A stretch of DNA of 25,631 nucleotides. Source: a virus. Its lineage: Duplodnaviria > Caudoviricetes. Under the pieces are notes generated by a model, which saw only the letters and a list, made by a program, of their open reading frames with translations, made no database searches and had not been told where the DNA came from. The number at the start of each line of letters is the position of its first letter. Within the stretch, counting starts at the first letter, position 1. Below, in pieces: positions 5,984 through 24,047 of this stretch. The stretch is from the IMG/VR virus record IMGVR_UViG_3300037461_000119, positions 1 through 25,631 of that record, one strand, 5' to 3'. The position numbers were made by a program, and so were the translations under genes.

Positions 5984-8900
5984 TCAGTACGGAAGCATGA
6001 AGCCGCGCTTGGCCGCCTGTGCCAGCGCGGGGTCAATCTCGATGGCCTTCTGCCGGGGCGGGATGTAGGTCACGCCCGAGCCTTCGGTGTTCGCTTCGGC
6101 CATCAGTCGGTCGAACTCGTCTTTGCTGGTCGCGACGGTGTAGTCCTTGGTGCCGTCGGGGTTCAGGGTCTCGAAGGTCGGGCGCCCGAACTGGCCGACG
6201 ATGTCGCGAATCTCGGCCTTGCTGCCCGCCGCACGCAGCACTTCGGCCAGCGCCTTCATCATGCGCCGGTCGTAGACATCCTTGAAGCCGAACTCGCGCG
6301 GGGTGTAGTCGCCCGAGCCCTCCTTGCCCATCTTCTGCAAGAGCATATTGGCCCGCTTCATCTTCTGCTCGTCGGGCTTGGCGTACTCGTGCATTCCGTA
6401 GGACAGTCGGCGGTCGACGACTTCCTTCATGCGCTGCGCCGCCTCGGGGTCCTCAAGGTTGATGCGGGCGATTTCATCGTCCTCGAAGCCGGTCGGGTTC
6501 GCCTGCAACTGGCGCACCCGCTCGTCGATGGGTCCGCGTCCCTCGTTGCCGTACTCCTTGGCGGTGAGGATGCGCACGACCGGGTTGTCGGGATCGGTGG
6601 CCCACTGCACGGACTCGCTGCCGTAGCGCCGCGCGTGCGTCTCGCCCGGGCTGAACGCGAGGTACTGCTGCCCTTGCTGCACGGCGCGTCGCACGGCGTC
6701 GATGAGCGCGAGCTTGGTGTACTGCTCGGTCTCCATGAACGGTCCCTCGGGGACCATCTTGTTGAACGGCGACTCGGTCTCGCGGCTCAGGTTGCCGAGC
6801 GCATCGCGAATCTCCACCGCGCGGGATTCGAGCGGCGATGCGCTCGGCGCTCGGTAGTACAACTCGTTGAACAGTTCGTAGGCGGCCTGCTGTCGCGCCT
6901 CGAAGTTCGTCGGGTCGGTCGCTTGGAACTGTTCGAGCAGGTTGATGACGTGCTGCTCGCCCGGGGCGCGGTCGCTCGGCGGCAGGTTGCGAATCTGCTG
7001 GATGTAGTCGTCGAACGCGGGCTCGGTGAGCGCCGTCGTGACGCCCGAGAGCGCCTCGTTCTGGAATGCGGCGTTGCGTGCCTCGGTGTCGAGGCGAAGT
7101 TGCTGCGCGTTCTCGGGATCGAGGAAGCCAATCTTGCGGCCGCGCTGGTACGGATCGCTCTGCGCCTCCTCGATCATGCGCATCGGGTTGGGGTTGCCGT
7201 AGGCATCGGTCTGCACGCTGCCCCACTCGGGCGCGGGTCGGTCGGTCTCGCGGACGTGCAGCATATTCTCGCCGTAGTGCGTCGTGCCGCGCTGCGTGAA
7301 CGGCTCGCGTGCCTGCCCGATGTCGGGCAGCGCCTCGCGCTGCTGGATGCGCTCACGCTCGCGTGCGGCGAGCTTCGGATCGAGCTTGCGGTTCGGGTCG
7401 ATGGCGCCTTCCGGCCCGGCGATGCCCTGCTGGCTCATCTCGTCGAGCGCGGCAAGCTCGGCCTGCGGATCGGTGCCGCGGCCGAAGCGCCCCTCGCGCA
7501 GCACGTTGGCGAGCGTCACGCCGTAGTTCTGGCCTGCACCGCCCAGCACGTCGCGGCCTTCGCTGCGCGTGCCGCCGATGGTGTAGTCGCCGTAGGCGGG
7601 CACCGGCTTCGAGGGGCGCTGCGAGAGCCATGAGAGCGTGTCGGGGTCGACGCCCTGCTGCTGATACCAGCGGCGCTCCTCGCGGCGCTGCTGCTCGGCG
7701 CTCGGGGCATAGTCCCCGAAGTCGCTGGCGTTCTCGTGCGCCTGCTCCTCCCAATAGTCGCGCAGGCTGTCGTAGTTGAGCGGCTCGGAGTCGTAGTCGG
7801 TGACACTCTCGACGCTGTACTCGTCGCCGTCGTTCACCGAGTCATGCGCCGCACGCTCGGCCCACGCCTGCCGTGCGTTGTCGTCCATCTCGGCAAGCGT
7901 TTCCTCGTCGAAGTGTTCCTCGATGTTTTCGAGGTAATACTCGGTCTCGCTCTCGACGGCATCGTCCTTCAACTGCTCGATGTAACGCTCGGCGTCGCGC
8001 TCGTTGTCGAAGGTTTCAATCTCGTCACGGTAGCGGCCGCTGCCACGGTAGACGGTGTAGGTCTCGGGGTATTCGAGGTCGCTGTCCTCGTACACACGAT
8101 TGCTGACCCACTCGTTCACCTGATCTTCGAGGCTGCCGTCCTCGTCCATCGCCTCGCGCAAGGTCTGCTTGCCCGCGTAGGGGTTCTGCCAGCGCGGCAC
8201 GTCCTTCGCCTCGGGCGGCATCACGACCGGCTCGGGGCGCCCGCCCTTGGTCTCGAACCCCATCTGCGGCGCGTTACGCTCCGCGAGCAGGCGCACGTCG
8301 GCCGCACTCAGGACCTCGTCGGTGTCGAGGATGCGGTCGAGGCCCATCCAGCGAAGCTCGTCGGGCTTGGCACCGCTGCGCACGAGCGCCTGCCGCATCT
8401 GCCTGCCCGGGACCCGTTGCTCCTGCTTCTTGAGCTTGCCGAACGCTTCGAGCGTGGGCGAGCGGAAGCCGAAGTCGCCCTCCACTGCGTTGAGGTCCTC
8501 CAACGTGTACGCGCCACGCTGCCCGATGGGCACGCCCGCGAGCGCCTCGCCCATCGGCACCGCGGTCTCGGCGCCGCGCCGTGCGACGCTCTGTGCGCCG
8601 CGCAGGGCGGCAATCTTGGCCGCGGCCGGGGCCAGCATCTCGGGATCGAGGACGTTCAGGCCCGTGTACACGGCCGCGCCCACCGCAGGCGAGCCGGTCA
8701 CGTCGGCGGCCTTCTGGCCGACCGCCTGCATCCCGCGGTCGATGGGCTCCATGACCGTGCCGAGCCCGCGTGCGAACTCCTGCCCGCCCTTGCTGCGCGG
8801 CATGAACGTGAACCGCTCGGCGTTCTCACCGATGGTGTCACTCGCGGCGTCGAAGTCGATCTTCTCGCCCTTGAGCTTCTGACGGGCCATGCCCGCGAGC

Positions 8901-14221: not shown

Positions 14222-14530
14222 CCGCCACAGCCTAGTGGCGGGGCCATGGAGCGGCTAAAAAGTGAGTATATATACCGCATTATTGTTAAATTGCCTGTTT
14301 TTTGTGGAAATCTGTATTCATATGCAAGTCTAGTGGCGGCTGTGGCGGAAAATGCGTTTTAGCCTACAAAACAAGGCACCAAACCCCCGCCACAGTATCC
14401 GTTTCCAGCGGCGGAAACCGCGGCGGCTGTGGCGGGGGCTGCGACTACGCCCCCCAACGGTACCTCGCCACCGTCTCGGCCTTGGCCCGCTGAAGCTTGC
14501 CTCCGCGAAGCATTTCCGGGGCTGTGGCGG
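14222..14530. repeat. Putative replication origin: AT-rich core flanked by CTGTGGCGG/CCGCCACAG repeats
   Basis: AT-rich stretch ~14256-14330; 9-mer in both orientations at about 14222, 14340, 14387, 14427 and 14522, plus two CTAGTGGCGG; at the 3' end of the primase gene. Confidence 0.6.
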
Positions 14531-16760
14531 GGATTCTGAGCAGCCACACACGTCGCCTTCCGTCGACCTCATCCCGCCGTCGACCAAGCATCTTCTCGGC
14601 CACGGCACGCACGTCGCTCGCCGTCCTCCGGTCGGCCGCACGTTCCCCGACCATCTCGCACAGGTCGGCCACGGTCACGACGTAGACCTCGGCATCGGCG
14701 GGCGCGGCAAGGCAGCGCCCAAGGAAGTCTTTCAGCCCTTCGACGGCCGGGGCGTCGTCCTCGAACTGCTCGGCCTGTGAAGCCCGCAGCGCGTCCTCGG
14801 CGTGCGTCAGGTGCCACTGCTCCCCGGCCTGCCAGAGCGCGTAGACCTCACCCCAGAGCGCCTCAAGGTCGATCCCGTGGTCGGTCTCCAACCCCTCGAC
14901 CGAGAGCGGCCAGAAGCGCCGTGAGCCCGTGTGATCGCGCAGGAAGCTCGTGCTGTTCACGGTGCCGCAGAATGCGGTCATGCGCGGCCAGTCCTCCCAC
15001 GTCGCGCCGTAGGGCAGCCTGAGCTTGTCGTCGGGGCGTGAGAGGAAGTTCTTCAACGCCCCGGCCTCGCTCGCCCTGAACGTGGTCTCAAGCTCTCCAA
15101 GCTCGACGATGATGCCGCCCGAGAGCGCCTCGAACACGCTGTCGCGTGCGGTCGGCCCGCTCAGGTGCAGCGACGCGCCTTCCTTGTAGAACCCGGCCGG
15201 TACGATGGTGCGGAACCACGTCGTCTTGCGCGTGCCCTGCTTCCCGGCGAAGGTCAGCACGCCCGACAGTTGCCGCGACGGTTTGCGCCAGCCGCACGCG
15301 GCCTCGACGCACTGGATCAGCCAGCGGCGTACATACGCCCGCGCACGCTCTGCGTCGGCCTCGGGGTCCGAGAGCTTGATCGTGCGCACCAGCGCCTCGA
15401 TATGCGCCTCACCGCGGCGAGCGGGCAGCGAGCGCAGCCAGTCCTCGAACGGGTGATAGGCGTTGGTGAGCGCGAGCCGGTTAAGTTGCACCATGCGCTT
15501 CGAGTCCTCGCGGATGCCGAGCATGGTCAGGATGTCCCCAAGCGCGGCGTCGGTCGCTCGCCGCCGGTCGCCTTCTGTCGCGCACCGTCGGTAGTAGTCG
15601 TGCGTGGCGAGCGCCCCCGGTGCGATGCTGTACTCCTTGCGCATCAGGTCGTAGCGTGGGGTGAGCCCAAGCCGCGTGACGACGTGTTCCACGTTGGCGA
15701 ACGTGGCGGGCTGTATCTTCGCCAGCCCTCGCTGCGTGCAATCGAGGTCTGGCAGGCTCTCTTTGGCGATGCGTGGGAAAGCCCCACGGAACTGCGCGTA
15801 GTTGCTGCCGAGCGCCTGCTTCAACTCCCCCGGCGTCGCGACCGGAACTTCCTGCTCGCGCAAAAGCCCGGCCAGCTTGTCCATCGTCTGCTCGGCGTCC
15901 ACCGTGCCCGGGCCACCCTGCTCGCCCACCCAACGCATGAACTCCTGTGTGTGTCGGTCCTTGCAGGTTGTGTGCTGGCACTTGAAGCCGCGCGTGCCGT
16001 TCTCGTCGAGCGGTCGATAGCCCGCCTCGGGCCGCGGGTCCGCGACGTGTTCGCTGCGCCACGGGCACAGAATGTCGATCCACTCGCCCTTGTCATGCCG
16101 CACGTCGCCGCGCTTGATGAGCCACGCCAGCACCGGATCGTGTTCGGCTCTCTCTGCGCTCACGAAGCTCTCAGTGCGCTCCACTTCGAGCGTGAGCCCG
16201 TAGGCGTCGGCAAGTTCCTGCACGCTCCAGAAGCGGTCAGGGTGCCACTCGTGCAGCACCGCCGCGAACGGTTCGGCGCCCTTGTAGTTGAGCGAGCCCG
16301 GCACGCGCATGATGCGGACACGGTCGACGCACGACTTGTCGGTGAGCCCAGCCGCGGCCAGCGCACGCATGAGAGCCTCGAACAAGTCGCCGTCGGTGCA
16401 TGGCTCGATGAAGTAGCCCCACTGAAAATTGCCGGGGGAGGTTTCGAGCTTGTAGCTGGGCGGGACGTGTACACGCTCCGCGTCGATCTTGGTACCGATG
16501 TCGTCCAGCACCACGACATAGGCCGCGCGGAAGTCGACCTTGCGCTTTTTAAGCGGCGTGGCCTTGGCAACCGTCGAGACACAGAAGTAGAGCGCGTCCT
16601 TCGACCGAGTTACCTTCGAGTCTCCGGGTAGCGCCCACTTCGCAGTGCGTGCGCCCTTGGGCATCAATCCGAAAACAGGCGTCTCGCCCTCGGGCACGTC
16701 GACAAAGATGGCGTCGAGGAACTCTTGGGCGCTCGGTGCGCCGTCGTTGCCCTCGCTCAC
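14445..16760 (-). CDS. Primase-helicase: RepB-type primase, Zn finger and VirE/VapE-like ATPase (771 aa)
   Basis: VVLDDIG, PSYKLETSPGNFQWGY and RIMRVPGSLN (RepB/AEP primase); CPWRSEH...FKCQHTTC; GKQGTRKTT, IVELGEL, LRLPYG and FCGTVN...FLRDHTGSRRFWP (VirE). Confidence 0.9.
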   Translation of the reverse strand: MSEGNDGAPSAQEFLDAIFVDVPEGETPVFGLMPKGARTAKWALPGDSKVTRSKDALYFCVSTVAKATPLKKRKVDFRAAYVVVLDDIGTKIDAERVHVPPSYKLETSPGNFQWGYFIEPCTDGDLFEALMRALAAAGLTDKSCVDRVRIMRVPGSLNYKGAEPFAAVLHEWHPDRFWSVQELADAYGLTLEVERTESFVSAERAEHDPVLAWLIKRGDVRHDKGEWIDILCPWRSEHVADPRPEAGYRPLDENGTRGFKCQHTTCKDRHTQEFMRWVGEQGGPGTVDAEQTMDKLAGLLREQEVPVATPGELKQALGSNYAQFRGAFPRIAKESLPDLDCTQRGLAKIQPATFANVEHVVTRLGLTPRYDLMRKEYSIAPGALATHDYYRRCATEGDRRRATDAALGDILTMLGIREDSKRMVQLNRLALTNAYHPFEDWLRSLPARRGEAHIEALVRTIKLSDPEADAERARAYVRRWLIQCVEAACGWRKPSRQLSGVLTFAGKQGTRKTTWFRTIVPAGFYKEGASLHLSGPTARDSVFEALSGGIIVELGELETTFRASEAGALKNFLSRPDDKLRLPYGATWEDWPRMTAFCGTVNSTSFLRDHTGSRRFWPLSVEGLETDHGIDLEALWGEVYALWQAGEQWHLTHAEDALRASQAEQFEDDAPAVEGLKDFLGRCLAAPADAEVYVVTVADLCEMVGERAADRRTASDVRAVAEKMLGRRRDEVDGRRRVWLLRIPATAPEMLRGGKLQRAKAETVARYRWGA
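16466..16475. repeat. CGTGTACACG palindrome, site 6 (in primase)
   Basis: Exact 10-mer. Confidence 0.8.
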
Positions 16761-16948
16761 TTGTCGCTACTCGGCTTGAACGGGGCCAGAGGGACCCAAC
16801 CGGCGGGCACCGACTTGCCGGTGTTGGTCATGTACCCGTGTATGGCGGGCTGGTAGACGTAGACACGCCCAAGGTTCGTGAGCGCATGGATAACGACGTT
16901 ATCCTCGCTCTCTTGGCAAGTGCTGATTTGGATGATCTTCTCGGACAC
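16757..16948 (-). CDS. Hypothetical protein (63 aa, MSEKIIQIS...), coupled to primase
   Basis: GTG 16948 with AAGGAG RBS; GTGA overlap with the primase start. Confidence 0.7.
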   Translation of the reverse strand: MSEKIIQISTCQESEDNVVIHALTNLGRVYVYQPAIHGYMTNTGKSVPAGWVPLAPFKPSSDK

Positions 16949-16992
16949 AGGACTCTCCTTTTTGGGTTTCCAGACTCCAGTGGAAGGGAGCG

Positions 16993-17021
16993 ACTCTACT
17001 CCCGCAGTTGACCACGGGCAA
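16993..17021 (-). promoter_or_regulatory. Sigma70-type promoter for the 63-aa/primase operon
   Basis: TTGCCC-17 bp-TAGAGT on minus; overlaps the divergent sRNA promoter. Confidence 0.6.
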
Positions 17022-17036
17022 GTCGACGGGTACAGT
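17008..17036 (+). promoter_or_regulatory. Sigma70-type promoter of the putative sRNA
   Basis: TTGACC-17 bp-TACAGT. Confidence 0.7.
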
Positions 17037-17042
17037 TCGCGG

Positions 17043-17121
17043 ACTCCTAGTTGGTTTACTCCAGTGGATCGACACGGACAGGGCGAAGCCCCGGGTAGCA
17101 ATACCCGGGGCTTTTCTCTTT
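17043..17121 (+). ncRNA. Putative trans-acting antisense small RNA (~80 nt)
   Basis: Bounded by a plus-strand promoter and a plus-strand intrinsic terminator inside a minus-strand region, with no plausible ORF of its own. 5' half ACUCCUAGUUGGUUUACUCCAGUGGAUCGA is complementary to several phage RBS leaders. Confidence 0.65.
17086..17121 (+). terminator. Rho-independent terminator, plus-oriented
   Basis: AAGCCCCGGGTA-GCAA-TACCCGGGGCTT followed by TTCTCTTT; GNRA loop and T-tract occur only on the plus strand. Confidence 0.8.
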
Positions 17122-17282
17122 CAGCGCCCCGCCATGCGCTCGGCGTCGTCCTCGGCGCAGTTGGCGAACCACCAGAGCGCCATGCTGCCGAACGCCCAGC
17201 CATCTTCACCGATGATGAAGCAGGCCAGCGTGGCGAGCCCGGCGCAGAACGCGACGGCGTCCCAGAAGTTGCTCTCGCTCAT
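17121..17282 (-). CDS. Small hydrophobic / membrane protein (53 aa)
   Basis: TGATG overlap with the upstream gene, GGAGG RBS; FWDAVAFCAGLATLACFIIG hydrophobic stretch. Confidence 0.6.
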   Translation of the reverse strand: MSESNFWDAVAFCAGLATLACFIIGEDGWAFGSMALWWFANCAEDDAERMAGR

Positions 17283-17839
17283 CACAGGTCCTCCCCGCAG
17301 CACGGGCAGCGTGTCGCAAGCTGGAACCACTGGTTCGACATCCGCCACACCGCGCCGCACGCGGAGCATTCGAGCTTCATATGGCGGTTCTTCTGCTTGC
17401 CCGCGCCGTCGAGCGTGAGCGAGCCGTAGTCGAAGGCGGGCATCGCGGCCAGCGTCTCGTTGATCCACTTGGCAAGCTCGGCGCCCGCGTGCGTCGCGGT
17501 CATCTTGCCTTCGAGCCCGACCGACTTGGCGACGCGCCGGAAAAATCCCTTGTGGCCGCTCTTGCAGTCGTCGGCGGCGTGGATGGCCTCATGCACCAGC
17601 ACGTCGACCAGCGTGAACGGCGTGCGCATCACGGGGTTGAGGAAAATCTCGTTCACGCCCTGCGAGGAGCGCGAGCGCGGCCAGCACTCCCCGATGCGCT
17701 TGCGGGCCGAGCCGCCGCCCGGGAAGCCGACCGAGACCTTGCAGTCGGCCGGGACGGTGGCGCCGTGGGCGGCGAGCAGCGGGGCAACGTGCTTGTGCAG
17801 GACCGTGGTTAGCCACTGCTCGCGGGTCATCTTGGTCAT
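17282..17839 (-). CDS. SprT-like zinc metallopeptidase with C-terminal Zn ribbon (185 aa)
   Basis: VLVHEAIHA (HExxH), GHKGFF, then CSACG...CPCC; ATG 17839 lies 6 nt after GGAG. Confidence 0.8.
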   Translation of the reverse strand: MTKMTREQWLTTVLHKHVAPLLAAHGATVPADCKVSVGFPGGGSARKRIGECWPRSRSSQGVNEIFLNPVMRTPFTLVDVLVHEAIHAADDCKSGHKGFFRRVAKSVGLEGKMTATHAGAELAKWINETLAAMPAFDYGSLTLDGAGKQKNRHMKLECSACGAVWRMSNQWFQLATRCPCCGEDL

Positions 17840-17845
17840 GGTCAT

Positions 17846-17903
17846 CTCCAGTGAGGTTGATCGAACGACAGGCAGTGTACACGCCCTGTTAGGAGATTGC
17901 AAC
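17846..17903 (-). promoter_or_regulatory. Early promoter/leader repeat, copy 3
   Basis: TTGCAA(17902-17897)-17 bp-TACACT(17879-17874), then GTTCGATCAAcctCACTGGAG. Confidence 0.85.
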
Positions 17904-18376
17904 TACCCAACCATGTTCATGCTGCGGACCTCGTAGCCCGCCTTGCGGATGCGGCTTGCGGCCGACGTGCGGTTGTGGGCGCCCACGAGTACCGTGTGCA
18001 TCGCGTTGCCCTGCCCCTCGACCTCGGCCTCGTAAGCGTGCGCCCCCGTGAACGGCAGTTCATTCACTACCGCCACCACTTTGCAGGTACGGGCCAGTCC
18101 GTTGCCCTGCTGGTTCCAGTAGTTGTAGCGCCCCGGGTTGCCACGGTCCTCACTGCCGTCGCGCCAGTGCTTCGGAATCTGGCACTCGTAGCCCGGGTGT
18201 GCGTTGCCGAGGAACTCGCAGTAGTTGACGTGGCAGTCGCCGCCCGGCCCGCTGGCGTCGTGGCTCTGGCTCACCTTGACTTCCCTCACACGGAACAGGC
18301 CGCCGTGGGCGATTATCAGGTCATCGACCTTGAGCGTGTTGGTGGGGACGCTGGCGGTGCGGTAGCGGGTCGTCAT
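17903..18376 (-). CDS. Hypothetical early protein (157 aa)
   Basis: ATG 18376 behind CACTGGAG and repeat copy 2; WNQQGNGLA motif. Confidence 0.75.
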   Translation of the reverse strand: MTTRYRTASVPTNTLKVDDLIIAHGGLFRVREVKVSQSHDASGPGGDCHVNYCEFLGNAHPGYECQIPKHWRDGSEDRGNPGRYNYWNQQGNGLARTCKVVAVVNELPFTGAHAYEAEVEGQGNAMHTVLVGAHNRTSAASRIRKAGYEVRSMNMVG

Positions 18377-18384
18377 CTCGTGTA

Positions 18385-18441
18385 CTCCAGTGAATTGATC
18401 GAACGAGAGGCAGTGTACACGGGCTGTTAGGGGATTGCAAC
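18385..18441 (-). promoter_or_regulatory. Early promoter/leader repeat, copy 2
   Basis: TTGCAA(18440-18435)-17 bp-TACACT(18417-18412), then GTTCGATCAATTCACTGGAG. Confidence 0.85.
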
Positions 18442-18469
18442 CCTTCATCGGCTTAACAGCCCGGTCGCC

Positions 18470-19222
18470 TTACCAGCCGCCCTTAAGGGCGCACTCGGGG
18501 CCGATGCCCCGGGCCACGCTCACCGGGTCGGTCAGGAGCCGCCCGCAGCACCCGCAGCGCCCCGTGCGCTGCCCGTGGTCCTCCAGCGCCCGGGCCGGGT
18601 CAACCTCGATGGCCGCGACCGCGGTAAAGAGGTCGTCGCGGCGCAGGGAGCCCGACTTGACCGTGCGGAACACCCCCTCGGTGCGGTCGATGACCCCGAC
18701 GAGGTCCTGCCCGTCCTTGACCCAGACGAGGTCGGCCGGGTCGTTGCGCAGCGTGAAGCGCAGGGCGCCCACGGTGAGGCGTGCGAAGCGGTCGGGGGCG
18801 ATCAGGGCCGCCAGCCCGGGGACGGGCAAAGTCGGCGTGGCGGGCCTCGCAGGGGCCTTCTCGATGGTCGTCTCGACCACCGGCAGCGGCCCCGGGACCT
18901 CCGGGGGCGCCGTGACGCCCGCCCACTGGCAGAGCTTGGCCGCGTAGTCGGCCTGCTTCTGGCTGGCGTAGGAGCCGTAGCGGTCGAGCTTGGCGGCGAT
19001 GTCGAAACAGGTCTCGGAGTCGCGGGCGGCGAGGGTGTTCACCCGGGTCGCGCAGCGGGCAGCGTACACGCGCCCAGCCTGCATTAGCTCGTCACGGGTC
19101 GGGCCGACGGGGGCGCCCACGCCTTCCCCCTGCACCGGGTTCGGCAGGTTGTACCGCTGCGCGACTTCGCTCATGCGGGCGCGGTTCTCGCGGCGGGCGG
19201 CACGGTTGGCTTCGTAGGTCAT
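18470..19222 (-). CDS. DUF6011-like Zn-finger early protein (250 aa)
   Basis: C-terminal G.RTGRCGCCGRLLTDPVSVARGIGPEC; S.KQ motif; ATG 19222 lies 6 nt after GGAG. Confidence 0.8.
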   Translation of the reverse strand: MTYEANRAARRENRARMSEVAQRYNLPNPVQGEGVGAPVGPTRDELMQAGRVYAARCATRVNTLAARDSETCFDIAAKLDRYGSYASQKQADYAAKLCQWAGVTAPPEVPGPLPVVETTIEKAPARPATPTLPVPGLAALIAPDRFARLTVGALRFTLRNDPADLVWVKDGQDLVGVIDRTEGVFRTVKSGSLRRDDLFTAVAAIEVDPARALEDHGQRTGRCGCCGRLLTDPVSVARGIGPECALKGGW

Positions 19223-19228
19223 GGTCAT

Positions 19229-19285
19229 CTCCAGTGAATTGATCGAACGAGGAGCAGTGTACACGCCCTGTTAGGGGATTGCAAC
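19229..19285 (-). promoter_or_regulatory. Early promoter/leader repeat, copy 1
   Basis: TTGCAA(19284-19279)-17 bp-TACACT(19261-19256), then GTTCGATCAATTCACTGGAG. Confidence 0.85.
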
Positions 19286-19288
19286 TCC

Positions 19289-19474
19289 TCACCAGTCCCG
19301 GGTCGCCCGCCACGCATCGAACTCGGCCTCGGCCAGCAAAACGTCGGCCCACCACTTCGCCCGCGCCTTGCCCCGGCGCTTCTTGGCCGCCTTATGGTGC
19401 GCCACCAGCCGCCGCAGGCCCGCGACCTCGCGCGGCTCGGGCGGCGGGGGCGCGTAGCCCGCGAACAGTTTCAT
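19289..19474 (-). CDS. Small basic hypothetical protein (61 aa, MKLFAGY...ATRDW)
   Basis: ATGA overlap with the upstream gene; ends just before promoter copy 1. Confidence 0.6.
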   Translation of the reverse strand: MKLFAGYAPPPPEPREVAGLRRLVAHHKAAKKRRGKARAKWWADVLLAEAEFDAWRATRDW

Positions 19475-21355: not shown

Positions 21356-21587
21356 TGGTTCCAGTTCTCCTGATCGTGTCGTGTACCGTTTCCTGTTGCG
21401 GCGTGGCCTTGCCACCGGGCCGCTTGAACTCGACGACCAGCACGACCCCGCCGGGGAGAAAGAACAGGCGGTCGGGGACTCCCCGGTTCGCCGGGCTGGA
21501 CCACTTGTAGGTCGGCCAGCCGTTCTCTTTGGCGATGTCGCGGCACTTGCCCTCGACTTCGGACTCAAGCATAGCCGGTTTCGTCAT
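21156..21587 (-). CDS. VRR-NUC domain nuclease (putative Holliday-junction resolvase)
   Basis: LESEVE, GVPDRL, VEFKRPGG...QQ: PD-(D/E)xK motif typical of phage VRR-NUC. Confidence 0.88.
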   Translation of the reverse strand: MTKPAMLESEVEGKCRDIAKENGWPTYKWSSPANRGVPDRLFFLPGGVVLVVEFKRPGGKATPQQETVHDTIRRTGTNVYVIDTVQGFRDLVAAVTGHPARLPESRHRPAVRLQRDARHHADGRGQDDHQRDGGDRTAWRRYR

Positions 21588-21590
21588 AGG

Positions 21591-21619
21591 TTGCAACTCT
21601 CTACGCAGGGTGTTAGGGT
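21591..21619 (+). promoter_or_regulatory. Sigma70-type promoter for the rightward replication operon
   Basis: TTGCAA-17 bp-TAGGGT; same -35 as the early promoters. Confidence 0.55.
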
Positions 21620-21650
21620 GGCGGGGTCAATACACACAGGAGACCGGATC

Positions 21651-23612: not shown

Positions 23613-24047
23613 ATGACCTTAGCTGTCCCCGAGAAGGCGCCGCGCAGGCACTACGTCTATATCTGGCACGTCGGTCGCAGTCGCTACGTCGGCAGCGGCA
23701 CACGTTTCAGGGCGTGGACGCATCTCAGGCTCAAGCGCGGCGCAGGCCCGTCGCAACATATCCGCAACGCGCATCTCAAAGGCCAGCCGCTCAAGGTCGA
23801 GATTGTGGCCGACAATCTCTCGGGCGAGGATGCTGCCCGCCTTGAGCGCAGCACCATCGCACGCCTGTACGGCGACGCCAGCGTGAAACTGCTCAACGTG
23901 TACAGCGTGCCGAAGGTCAAGCAGTCCACACGGATGATCCGCTGCCAGTGCCCCACCTGCGGCTACACGCTGCGCACGACGAGGCAGTGGCTCACCAAGT
24001 CGGTGCCGGTCTGCGGCACCTGCAACATCTCATTCGAGGTTCGCTGA
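23613..24047 (+). CDS. GIY-YIG-like nuclease domain fused to a Zn ribbon (144 aa)
   Basis: ATG 23613 behind CACTGGAG; YVY...YVGSG...R...H...E...I...LLN (GIY-YIG/LEM-3-like), then CPTCG...CGTC. Confidence 0.7.
   Translation: MTLAVPEKAPRRHYVYIWHVGRSRYVGSGTRFRAWTHLRLKRGAGPSQHIRNAHLKGQPLKVEIVADNLSGEDAARLERSTIARLYGDASVKLLNVYSVPKVKQSTRMIRCQCPTCGYTLRTTRQWLTKSVPVCGTCNISFEVR

Follow-up and report, generated by a model that had tools for sequence, protein, structure and literature searches.

A predicted antisense RNA beside the primase operon of a podovirus-like phage and a candidate antisense unit at the primase start of related phages

Genomic context of the primase locus

The window analysed here is a stretch of 25,631 nucleotides (66% GC) that makes up an entire virus record (IMGVR_UViG_3300037461_000119) and represents an approximately 60% complete genome of a podovirus-like phage. 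In gene order, minus-strand genes for adaptor, major head protein, portal and terminase precede the primase block, which is followed by small early genes and a helicase and then, on the plus strand, by genes for an exonuclease, a likely single-stranded DNA-binding protein (called from its position and its homology to relatives) and DNA polymerase. The nearest cultured head proteins are those of Stenotrophomonas phage BUCT555 (74%) and Myxococcus phage Mx8 (61%), and the sequencing runs that contain window DNA are wetland and sediment metagenomes. A preliminary description of this DNA had placed the locus in an otherwise all-minus region, which is correct up to about 21.6 kb and not beyond, where the exonuclease, ssb-like and polymerase genes are encoded on the plus strand. 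As these genes and the VRR-NUC/helicase genes are co-directional with the primase in relatives, the genome in the window appears to be rearranged. A divergent promoter region with a TTGCAA box is found at 21560-21640, between the minus-strand VRR-NUC/helicase genes and the plus-strand block. Three small genes resemble free-standing endonucleases (23613-24047, plus; 19910-19471 and 13490-13155, minus); two of the three match HNH PHROGs, two have ACTGGAG starts, and the plus-strand gene shares only its C-terminal zinc-ribbon-like end with the SprT-like family.

The primase gene (14445-16760, minus) encodes a 771-aa RepB-type primase/VapE-like helicase that carries a plasmid RepB-like domain, as identified by Pfam (PF05272, E 5e-44; PF16793, E 4e-5, just below its cut-off) and by a PHROG match to primase/helicase. 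Genes called putative integrase in Vibrio phages VP16C/T match this primase, and a BUCT555 gene labelled 'integrase' directly 3' of DNA polymerase I (L421, 11687-13957) corresponds in size and position to a VapE-type primase; these labels are likely mis-annotations. The start of the primase gene overlaps (GTGA) a 63-aa gene (16757-16948, minus; GC3 0.80), the arrangement that had been described previously; a protein search with its product matched only itself, and no homologue was found. The protein is also present on a 38-kb contig. The leader of this operon (16949-16986, minus; predicted target 1 below) consists of a CACUGGAGU block, an A/C-rich spacer and the Shine-Dalgarno (SD) sequence AGGAG. 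A second promoter, absent from the preliminary description, is predicted at 16993-17021 (minus; TTGCCC-17-TAGAGT, 8/12, -35 box at 17021-17016) and would start the leader at approximately 16986. By eye, a similar TTGCCC-17-TAAGGT lies upstream of the primase in L034. The primase leader of this terminase-nearest relative (6841-6915, plus) can form two alternative stems, in which either GCCGUGG or the SD block CCGUGGAG pairs with CUCCACGG, a possible cis switch, and an antisense-oriented terminator lies upstream of it at 6806-6779.

Upstream of the operon, after a 53/54-aa gene (17121-17285, minus), there are three near-identical early cassettes on the minus strand, each made of a TTGCAA-17-TACACT promoter, a leader and a start codon, beginning at 17902, 18440 and 19284. 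Cassette 3 (17839-17902; predicted target 2), whose leader has the SD region CACUGGAG, precedes a SprT-like gene (17839-17282); cassette 2 (18376-18440; predicted target 3) precedes a function-unassigned gene (18376-17903); and cassette 1 (19222-19284; predicted target 4) precedes a DUF6011 gene (19222-18470). No clear minus-strand terminator was found between 19300 and 16760. The early promoters (17902-17868, 18440-18406 and 19284-19250) have inverted arms around the -10 box, such as ACAGG..CCTGT, with letters that change together between copies, and like arms are present at early promoters of the relative L036 (13116-13160, 15240-15275, 16030-16065 and 16899-16935), for example GGAGGAG..CTCCTCC and GGGGG..CCCCC. 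This suggests a hairpin or cruciform promoter, which we take to be comparable to the promoter early stem-loops of T4. One contig (run X5, joint 19108-19228) skips 119 bases just 3' of the first early cassette, possibly as a result of strain-to-strain gene exchange at the repeated cassettes.

Promoter, terminator and fold of the predicted RNA

The preliminary description had proposed a small RNA gene on the plus strand next to the primase operon, and the signals that it named are present in the sequence. The sigma-70-type promoter comprises TTGACC (17008-17013), a 17-nt spacer and TACAGT (17031-17036), and it is one of two sites that score at least 9/12 between 13000 and 20000, compared with 0.4 +/- 0.6 in shuffled sequence. 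Its -35 box is 2 nt from that of the primase-operon promoter, so the two promoters are likely to compete. The intrinsic terminator GAAGCCCCGGGUA-GCAA-UACCCGGGGCUUUUCUCUUU (17085-17121, plus), at which the 53/54-aa gene ends, has a GC stem (17088-17111) with a GCAA loop and is followed on the plus strand by UUUUCUCUUU; read on the minus strand it has just 2 U after the stem, in agreement with the earlier observation of a plus-only U-tract. It is the sole strict terminator found by our script in the 25.6-kb window, with the RNA promoter 54 nt upstream, a count to be read with the script's limited sensitivity, since it missed the known L142 hairpin in G002.

The predicted RNA (17041-17121, plus) would be approximately 79-81 nt long, with a probable +1 at 17041-17044. 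Its predicted layout is a single-stranded anti-SD 5' end, a 10-bp hairpin (four G-U pairs, CUCCAG at the tip) and the terminator. The predicted fold has an energy of -43.1 kcal/mol (z -6.5), due mostly to the terminator. The 5' hairpin folds at -9.7 on the plus strand vs -3.2 on the minus strand, and alone it is not significant, as 90 of 1000 shuffles fold equally well. Contigs from two further runs cover 16700-17585 without any difference, so the region is not an assembly artefact, and the differences listed between DNA runs and 16700-19400 include none within the RNA or the leader. The RNA is likely to be transcribed. No Rfam family matched it; one chance match (mir-343, E 0.44) lies elsewhere in the window. 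The C4 model RF01695 gave no match at E <= 10 in the genome and none in the all-family scan, and an Rfam 15 scan of nine relatives returned a single weak hairpin match (E 0.46).

A predicted antisense unit at the primase start of related phages

A search with the SprT-like protein recovered 80 loci, among them those of a group of approximately 66% GC phages with shared genes and with primases 32-36% identical to that of the window. In these relatives a hairpin and then a short leader lie between the polymerase and the primase gene, and both the sequence and the orientation of this hairpin are like those of the window terminator. When three collections were searched by primase alignment, 62 loci had a match at the N-terminus together with 200 nt of upstream sequence, 36 of which are distinct full-length RepB-VapE primase loci apart from the window's own copy; no close relative of the window primase was found in them.

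An antisense extended -10 box (TGnTAnnnT) is present within the first 54 nt of the primase gene at 27 of the 36 distinct loci, compared with 13 of 1332 windows taken further inside these genes and none of 149 other gene starts in nine relatives. Nine of the 27 were the loci of discovery, and the motif is also present at 18 of the 27 remaining loci. The loci are not independent: the motif occurs in 20 of 27 groups at 70% primase identity and in only 4 of 11 at 50%. In one register its codons are Asp/Asn/His/Tyr/Glu, Ser/Ala/Gly/Pro/Val/Ile and Ser/Ile/Thr/Asn, and a second register is used at four loci of 46-51% GC. The occurrence of the motif in two registers, over differing residues and with an invariant T at the third codon position in genomes of 66% GC, points to a constraint on the DNA. 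An A-run and hairpin precede the primase at 28 of the 36 loci, and both features are found together at 24; in 26 of 30 hairpins U is richer on the antisense than on the sense side. Covariation in the terminator is modest, with changes on both sides in 2 of 7 pairs. The predicted antisense RNAs of the relatives are 69-118 nt long and cover the start codon and SD, so that they fully overlap the primase leader in cis. From such sequence features, these relatives are predicted to make a cis-antisense RNA that spans the start of the primase gene, in the manner of ColE2 plasmids. The antisense -10 box hidden in the first primase codons would also explain the apparent conservation of those codons.

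A like unit precedes non-homologous replication genes, namely a PriCT_2/AAA_25 primase (L147, 42 bits), a Prim-Pol primase (L431, with an imperfect -10) and a DUF3987 protein (L441). One locus (L202) has the motif and no clear terminator, and four (L123, L181, L196, L282) have the hairpin and no strict motif at the called start. The motif was absent from all 8 primase-gene starts from an annotated phage collection, and no cultured model was therefore found. Among 141 distant VapE loci, whose start calls are rough, the motif was present in 9 (control 120 of 5280) and both features in 1, and model R1 (see below) detected no primase-linked unit in 78 GTDB loci. Several distant VapE-type primases have an upstream A-run hairpin (L213, L214, L218, L227, L253, L308), some with antisense TAAAAT or TACAAT near the start, and the unit may be more widespread than the strict test shows.

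Other elements recur in these genomes. The layout of hairpin, leader and antisense -10 is also seen before small genes (L433, 3084-3174; L438, 4968-5058; L436, 4960-5054); those in L433 and L436 have no Pfam match, and the U-tract is weak or absent in L433 and L438. In L158 (15743-15830), L187, L192, L261 and L281 (minus), the predicted antisense RNAs share a conserved GUGGUG loop closed by a GCCGC/GCGGC stem, and this loop complements a CACCAC loop in the primase leader, forming a candidate kissing-loop pair. Between early genes and also after the ssb-like gene, a small hairpin followed by TTTCGTTACG, and often by a GGAG start, recurs in L118, L129, L130, L136, L140, L142, L147, L154 and L156-L158, where GTTTAAAC is frequent near promoters; these motifs are possible processing sites, antiterminator boxes or operators.

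Probable origin of the window RNA

Model R1, which was built from 18 relatives with the window excluded, matches 17026-17119 on the plus strand with 28.3 bits, a score that does not discriminate, as the hairpin alone reaches 23-31 bits on the wrong strand in relatives. No homology to relatives was detected in the 5' part of the window RNA, for which 62 of 300 and 147 of 300 shuffles scored as well. The case for common origin is therefore made by the terminator, the spacing and the position upstream of a homologous primase: the RNA promoter is the positional counterpart of the relatives' antisense -10 box, and its -10 box is 57 nt from the terminator stem, within the relatives' range of 54-97 nt (8 of 18 at 54-61). 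On this evidence the window unit is likely descended from the cis unit of the relatives.

The window RNA differs from that unit in its relation to the primase leader. It starts approximately 55 nt upstream of the predicted leader in use and does not overlap it, because a second promoter, a leader copy and the 63-aa gene intervene. The minus strand of the RNA gene has a second, diverged copy 84 nt on, the primase-operon leader (local alignment score 39, reached by 1 of 500 shuffles), which retains the exact CACUGGAGU although its SD sits further down. The RNA gene's minus strand itself reads like an old leader, with a hairpin, a C-rich stretch and an SD, and it aligns to the early leaders with scores of 36-38, retaining blocks that match them from near +1 to the start codon; no AUG or GUG stands behind either of its two SD-like motifs. 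We infer that the simplest history is a leader duplication together with gain of a promoter and the 63-aa gene. The 11-nt perfect match reported earlier is present in the sequence as a repeat (16974-16984 and 17058-17068), and repeats of at least 11 nt arise in 11 of 2000 shuffles of 16900-17130. This match is not special to the primase-operon leader, as its core CACTGGAG is a genome-wide motif, found in 7 copies in the window vs 0.93 expected.

The same features could be read as those of a relic leader without a functional RNA, standing behind a terminator that guards the early genes from plus-strand transcription, with a promoter matched by chance. The 0.4 promoters of this kind that shuffles yield per 7 kb and the weak 5' hairpin would agree with that reading, as would a minus-strand frame that is open from 17209 to 16757 with both repeats in frame, 84 nt apart, and a CUG 8 nt behind AGGAG (17050-17046) that could give a minus-strand leader and a 91-aa form of the small protein. 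Against this, GC3 in the upstream part of the frame is 0.54-0.57 vs 0.80-0.93 in genes, and the distance from promoter to stem is that of relatives which carry the conserved antisense -10 box. We consider this explanation improbable.

Searches for the window arrangement elsewhere returned little. A search with a 15-nt core pattern gave 29 loci, with the own copy alone related; a promoter-cassette pattern matched the L036 contig only, among 65 stretches; and a seed-plus-hairpin pattern gave 18 loci, with the layout in the own copy only. No second genome with the non-overlapping layout was found. L036, the closest relative by terminase (82%), has ACTGGAG leaders, and an antisense-oriented hairpin lies upstream of a different primase; no RNA matching that of the window was found in the available 18.5 kb of L036, whose early block runs off the contig.

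Predicted targets of the window RNA

We scored pairing of the RNA with 25 of the 26 gene starts (the MCP start was omitted) by partition-function cofolding, which replaced duplex energy without folding costs, as the latter was too noisy. Duplex energy alone had ranked the primase-operon leader as the fourth non-cis site of 872 places and the early leaders outside the top 30. With folding costs included, the three early leaders rank best among the 25 gene starts: binding is -14.1, -13.8 and -13.0 kcal/mol for cassettes 3, 2 and 1, respectively, and none of 60 shuffles did as well in any of the three cases. The probability that the SD is unpaired falls with the RNA from 0.44 to 0.01, from 0.44 to 0.00 and from 0.23 to 0.01 in the same order. 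For the primase-operon leader, the same scan gave -7.3 kcal/mol, a value that 19 of 60 shuffles reached, and the SD is barely more covered (0.34 to 0.28). Depending on the choice of ends (37 C), values range from -7 to -16 kcal/mol for this leader and from -10.5 to -16 kcal/mol for the early leaders. The ordered pairing of three complementary blocks that had been described is reproduced in the predicted duplex; the primase-operon leader, proposed at that time as the main target, proves to be the least robust of the four predicted targets when folding costs are counted.

In a genome-wide scan of both strands (4652 windows, 609 places), the perfect cis complement is the best site (-66.8), followed by the primase-operon leader (-14.0, for a segment that takes in promoter bases), then cassette 2, a coding site (1629-1575, -13.7) and cassettes 3 and 1. 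Four of the five best non-cis sites among the 609 places are therefore the four cassette leaders, and the coding site scores as well as they do. Two further gene starts with ACTGGAG, complementary by eye, were rejected as targets, as 45 of 60 shuffles were as good for the HNH gene start (19910) and 8 of 60 for the plus-strand gene start (23613). The RNA is thus predicted by these models to bind the three early leaders, at CACUGGAG over the SD, more robustly than the primase-operon leader, and to block the ribosome-binding sites (RBS) of three early genes and, more weakly, of the primase operon.

It could also be that the RNA is aimed mainly at host mRNAs through its two CUCC motifs, 5' ACUCCU and CUCCAG, which resemble the 16S anti-SD. 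The extended matches GAUCGA and GACAGG fit phage leaders, which is at odds with such an aim and leaves it highly improbable, even though phage sRNAs that act on host mRNAs are known, such as PreS and VpdS, which are covered in a 2025 review of phage sRNAs (PMC12197685).

The pairing was also compared across relatives. Pairing with off-locus leaders beat or nearly beat 20 shuffles in 3 of 7 relatives (L129, 1/20; L130, 1/20; L136, 2/20) and showed no gain over shuffles in the other four. When RNAs and leaders were compared in 9 sets, the own RNA came first on the own leaders in just 2; targeting in trans throughout the family is unsupported by these results. Pairing of the window RNA is better with leaders from its own clade (window -13.5, L036 -14.4) than with those of the other clade (-4 to -9), a difference that co-adaptation and shared origin would explain equally well.

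The RNA could instead act in cis only. The early promoters read through the RNA gene and no clear minus-strand terminator is present, so the RNA is also a perfect complement of the read-through mRNA; pairing with that mRNA, together with competition between promoters whose -35 boxes are 2 nt apart, could be its whole function, and the leader matches would be left over from the duplication and from a shared SD motif. Three CACTGGAG copies are the SD regions of the early cassettes, 9 of 10 ACTGGAG copies in L036 are gene starts, and since CACTGGAG is the ordinary SD context of the clade, any leader copy read backwards complements other leaders. The RNA gene's minus strand moreover aligns to the early leaders as well as to the primase-operon leader, and the unit in relatives is purely overlapping, with off-locus pairing mostly at the level of shuffles. 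On the other hand, CACUGGAGU is kept exactly in the primase-operon leader despite an SD that sits further down, the RNA gene's minus strand keeps its early-leader-matching blocks with no start codon behind its SD-like motifs, and the hairpin that presents the seed at its tip forms only on the plus strand. We regard a purely cis role as rather unlikely.

Phage lifestyle and a possible immunity function

The preliminary description had suggested an RNA-based switch controlling replication or immunity. Genes for integrase, resolvase, ParA, ParB or S24 repressor are absent from all five near-complete relatives (91-100% complete), three of which have weak HTH_3 matches; primases of these relatives are only 32-36% identical to that of the window, and the missing 40% of the window genome lies outside this comparison. 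In the absence of lysogeny and partition genes from relatives, a role in timing or dosage during lytic growth is likelier than immunity, and the window phage is likely lytic.

A C4/CI-kind switch, in which the RNA would act as repressor of a temperate or plasmid-like state, would agree with the prediction that one RNA closes three early RBSs and the primase leader, with a window that has no HTH_3 gene in its approximately 60% of the genome, with the RepB-like plasmid domain of the primase, and with the classification of one relative (G003) as a provirus by IMG/VR. The lack of a C4 match and the gene content of the five relatives argue against it, and we judge an immunity function for the RNA to be very improbable.

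Proposed role of the antisense RNA

Our preferred reading, to which we give a probability of roughly 0.55, is that 17041-17121 encodes an approximately 80-nt antisense RNA that damps early and replication genes by covering their RBSs, and that it descends from the cis unit of the relatives. Of the preliminary description this keeps the antisense RNA tied to primase expression, which gains from the conserved antisense promoter and terminator at the relatives' primase start; kinship with C4, immunity and the primase leader as main target lack support.

In relatives, transcription from the putative promoter within the first primase codons would run back across the start codon and SD and end at a terminator located directly after the stop codon of the DNA polymerase gene; primase translation would be inhibited, as in ColE2-type plasmids. 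In the window, the RNA may act in three ways: by pairing perfectly with mRNA that reads through from the three early promoters; by pairing in trans, via CUCCAGUG-GAUCGA, with the three early leaders so as to cover their SD; and by weaker pairing in trans with the primase-operon leader, aided by competition between the back-to-back promoters. As genome copies rise, the RNA would accumulate and limit early and primase synthesis, in a phage that is likely lytic.

More tentatively, we suggest that an undescribed family of plasmid-style antisense RNAs caps the primase in integrase-free podoviruses, and that through leader duplication a cis RNA became a repressor that acts in trans, needs no protein and closes the RBS motif shared by the whole early regulon, together with the primase operon. 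If this is true, the conversion of a regulatory RNA from cis to trans has been caught in the act, and a dormant or slow-replicating state without a repressor protein would possibly be allowed. A window RNA that acts in trans would be an example of a one-target cis RNA becoming a multi-target regulator, and of a phage that turns down early genes without a repressor protein; should it not act in trans, the family-wide cis RNA would still be a new RNA family. No Rfam family covers the antisense unit at the primase start.

Comparison with known systems

The preliminary description had likened the RNA to P1 C4, P4 CI and N15 CA. The likeness lies in its length (C4, CI and CA, approximately 77-80 nt) and in partial complementarity to a nearby repeated sequence that includes the RBS. 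C4 lies on the same strand as its targets, and the operon regulated in P4 leads to a primase. RNAs of this group belong to temperate elements and have icd/kil/ant-type targets. The window RNA is instead a predicted primary, divergent transcript: its own promoter and terminator, on the strand opposite to the target, argue for a primary transcript, and its predicted fold, one hairpin and a terminator, is not the a'/b' three-stem fold closed by a P1 stem. Together with the lack of an Rfam match this sets it outside the C4/CI/CA group. C4 itself is described as three stem-loops cut by RNase P from a longer transcript (PMC5320573).

Resemblance is also found to short antisense RNAs that prevent the start of translation or make the mRNA opposite them unstable. 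IS10 RNA-OUT is a cis-encoded one-target RNA of this kind. AbcR1/2 and GcvB are chromosomal, Hfq-dependent sRNAs with anti-SD motifs and multiple targets; the window RNA shares with them a short seed that pairs with an initiation motif common to several mRNAs, and differs from them in being phage-encoded with predicted targets on the same genome. pMV158 RNAII, P22 sar and lambda OOP also belong here (PMC4485353 and PMC12197685); they are cis-encoded with one target each, and RNAII, with a 5' tail and a terminator hairpin directed against the rep gene, is the minimal case (PMC4485353). The RNAs sar and OOP control regulators of lysis and lysogeny, not primase (PMC12197685). There was no Rfam match to RNAII, sar, OOP or RNA-OUT.

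In phages, the 2025 review leaves primase unmentioned in its main text (PMC12197685), and for PAK_P3 a leader RNA on the sense strand ahead of the primase/helicase has been reported, along with 20 antisense RNAs (PMC10914365). In the open-access literature we found no report of an antisense unit on the primase of tailed phages without lysogeny genes.

The nearest counterparts, by description and with Rfam as the sequence comparison, are the RNAs of ColE2 and RepA-PFP plasmids. The ColE2 antisense RNA pairs with the rep mRNA's 5' untranslated region, and the Pseudomonas RepA-PFP control module, with an A-flanked terminator, has been swapped between non-homologous rep genes (PMC5304414). The phage RNAs likewise would be small and antisense, each transcribed from a promoter of its own and ending in a terminator stem flanked by A residues, and each would complement the 5' untranslated region of a primase-type gene; the module appears exchangeable here too, standing before RepB-VapE, Prim-Pol/AAA_25 and DUF3987 genes. 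They differ in belonging to approximately 40-kb tailed phages without lysogeny or partition genes, in the relatives' antisense promoter lying inside primase codons, and in a window RNA that has several predicted targets and no overlap with the leader in use. The antisense promoter and terminator flank the initiation region at 24 of 36 loci of relatives; in the window they are found upstream of the primase operon. In relatives the RNA is fully cis to the leader in use, and in the window it is cis only to the read-through mRNA. Antisense control of a replication initiator is a hallmark of plasmids. By analogy, the RNA likely belongs by function to plasmid-type antisense replication control, as a phage family not recorded so far, of which the window has a rearranged, possibly multi-target form.
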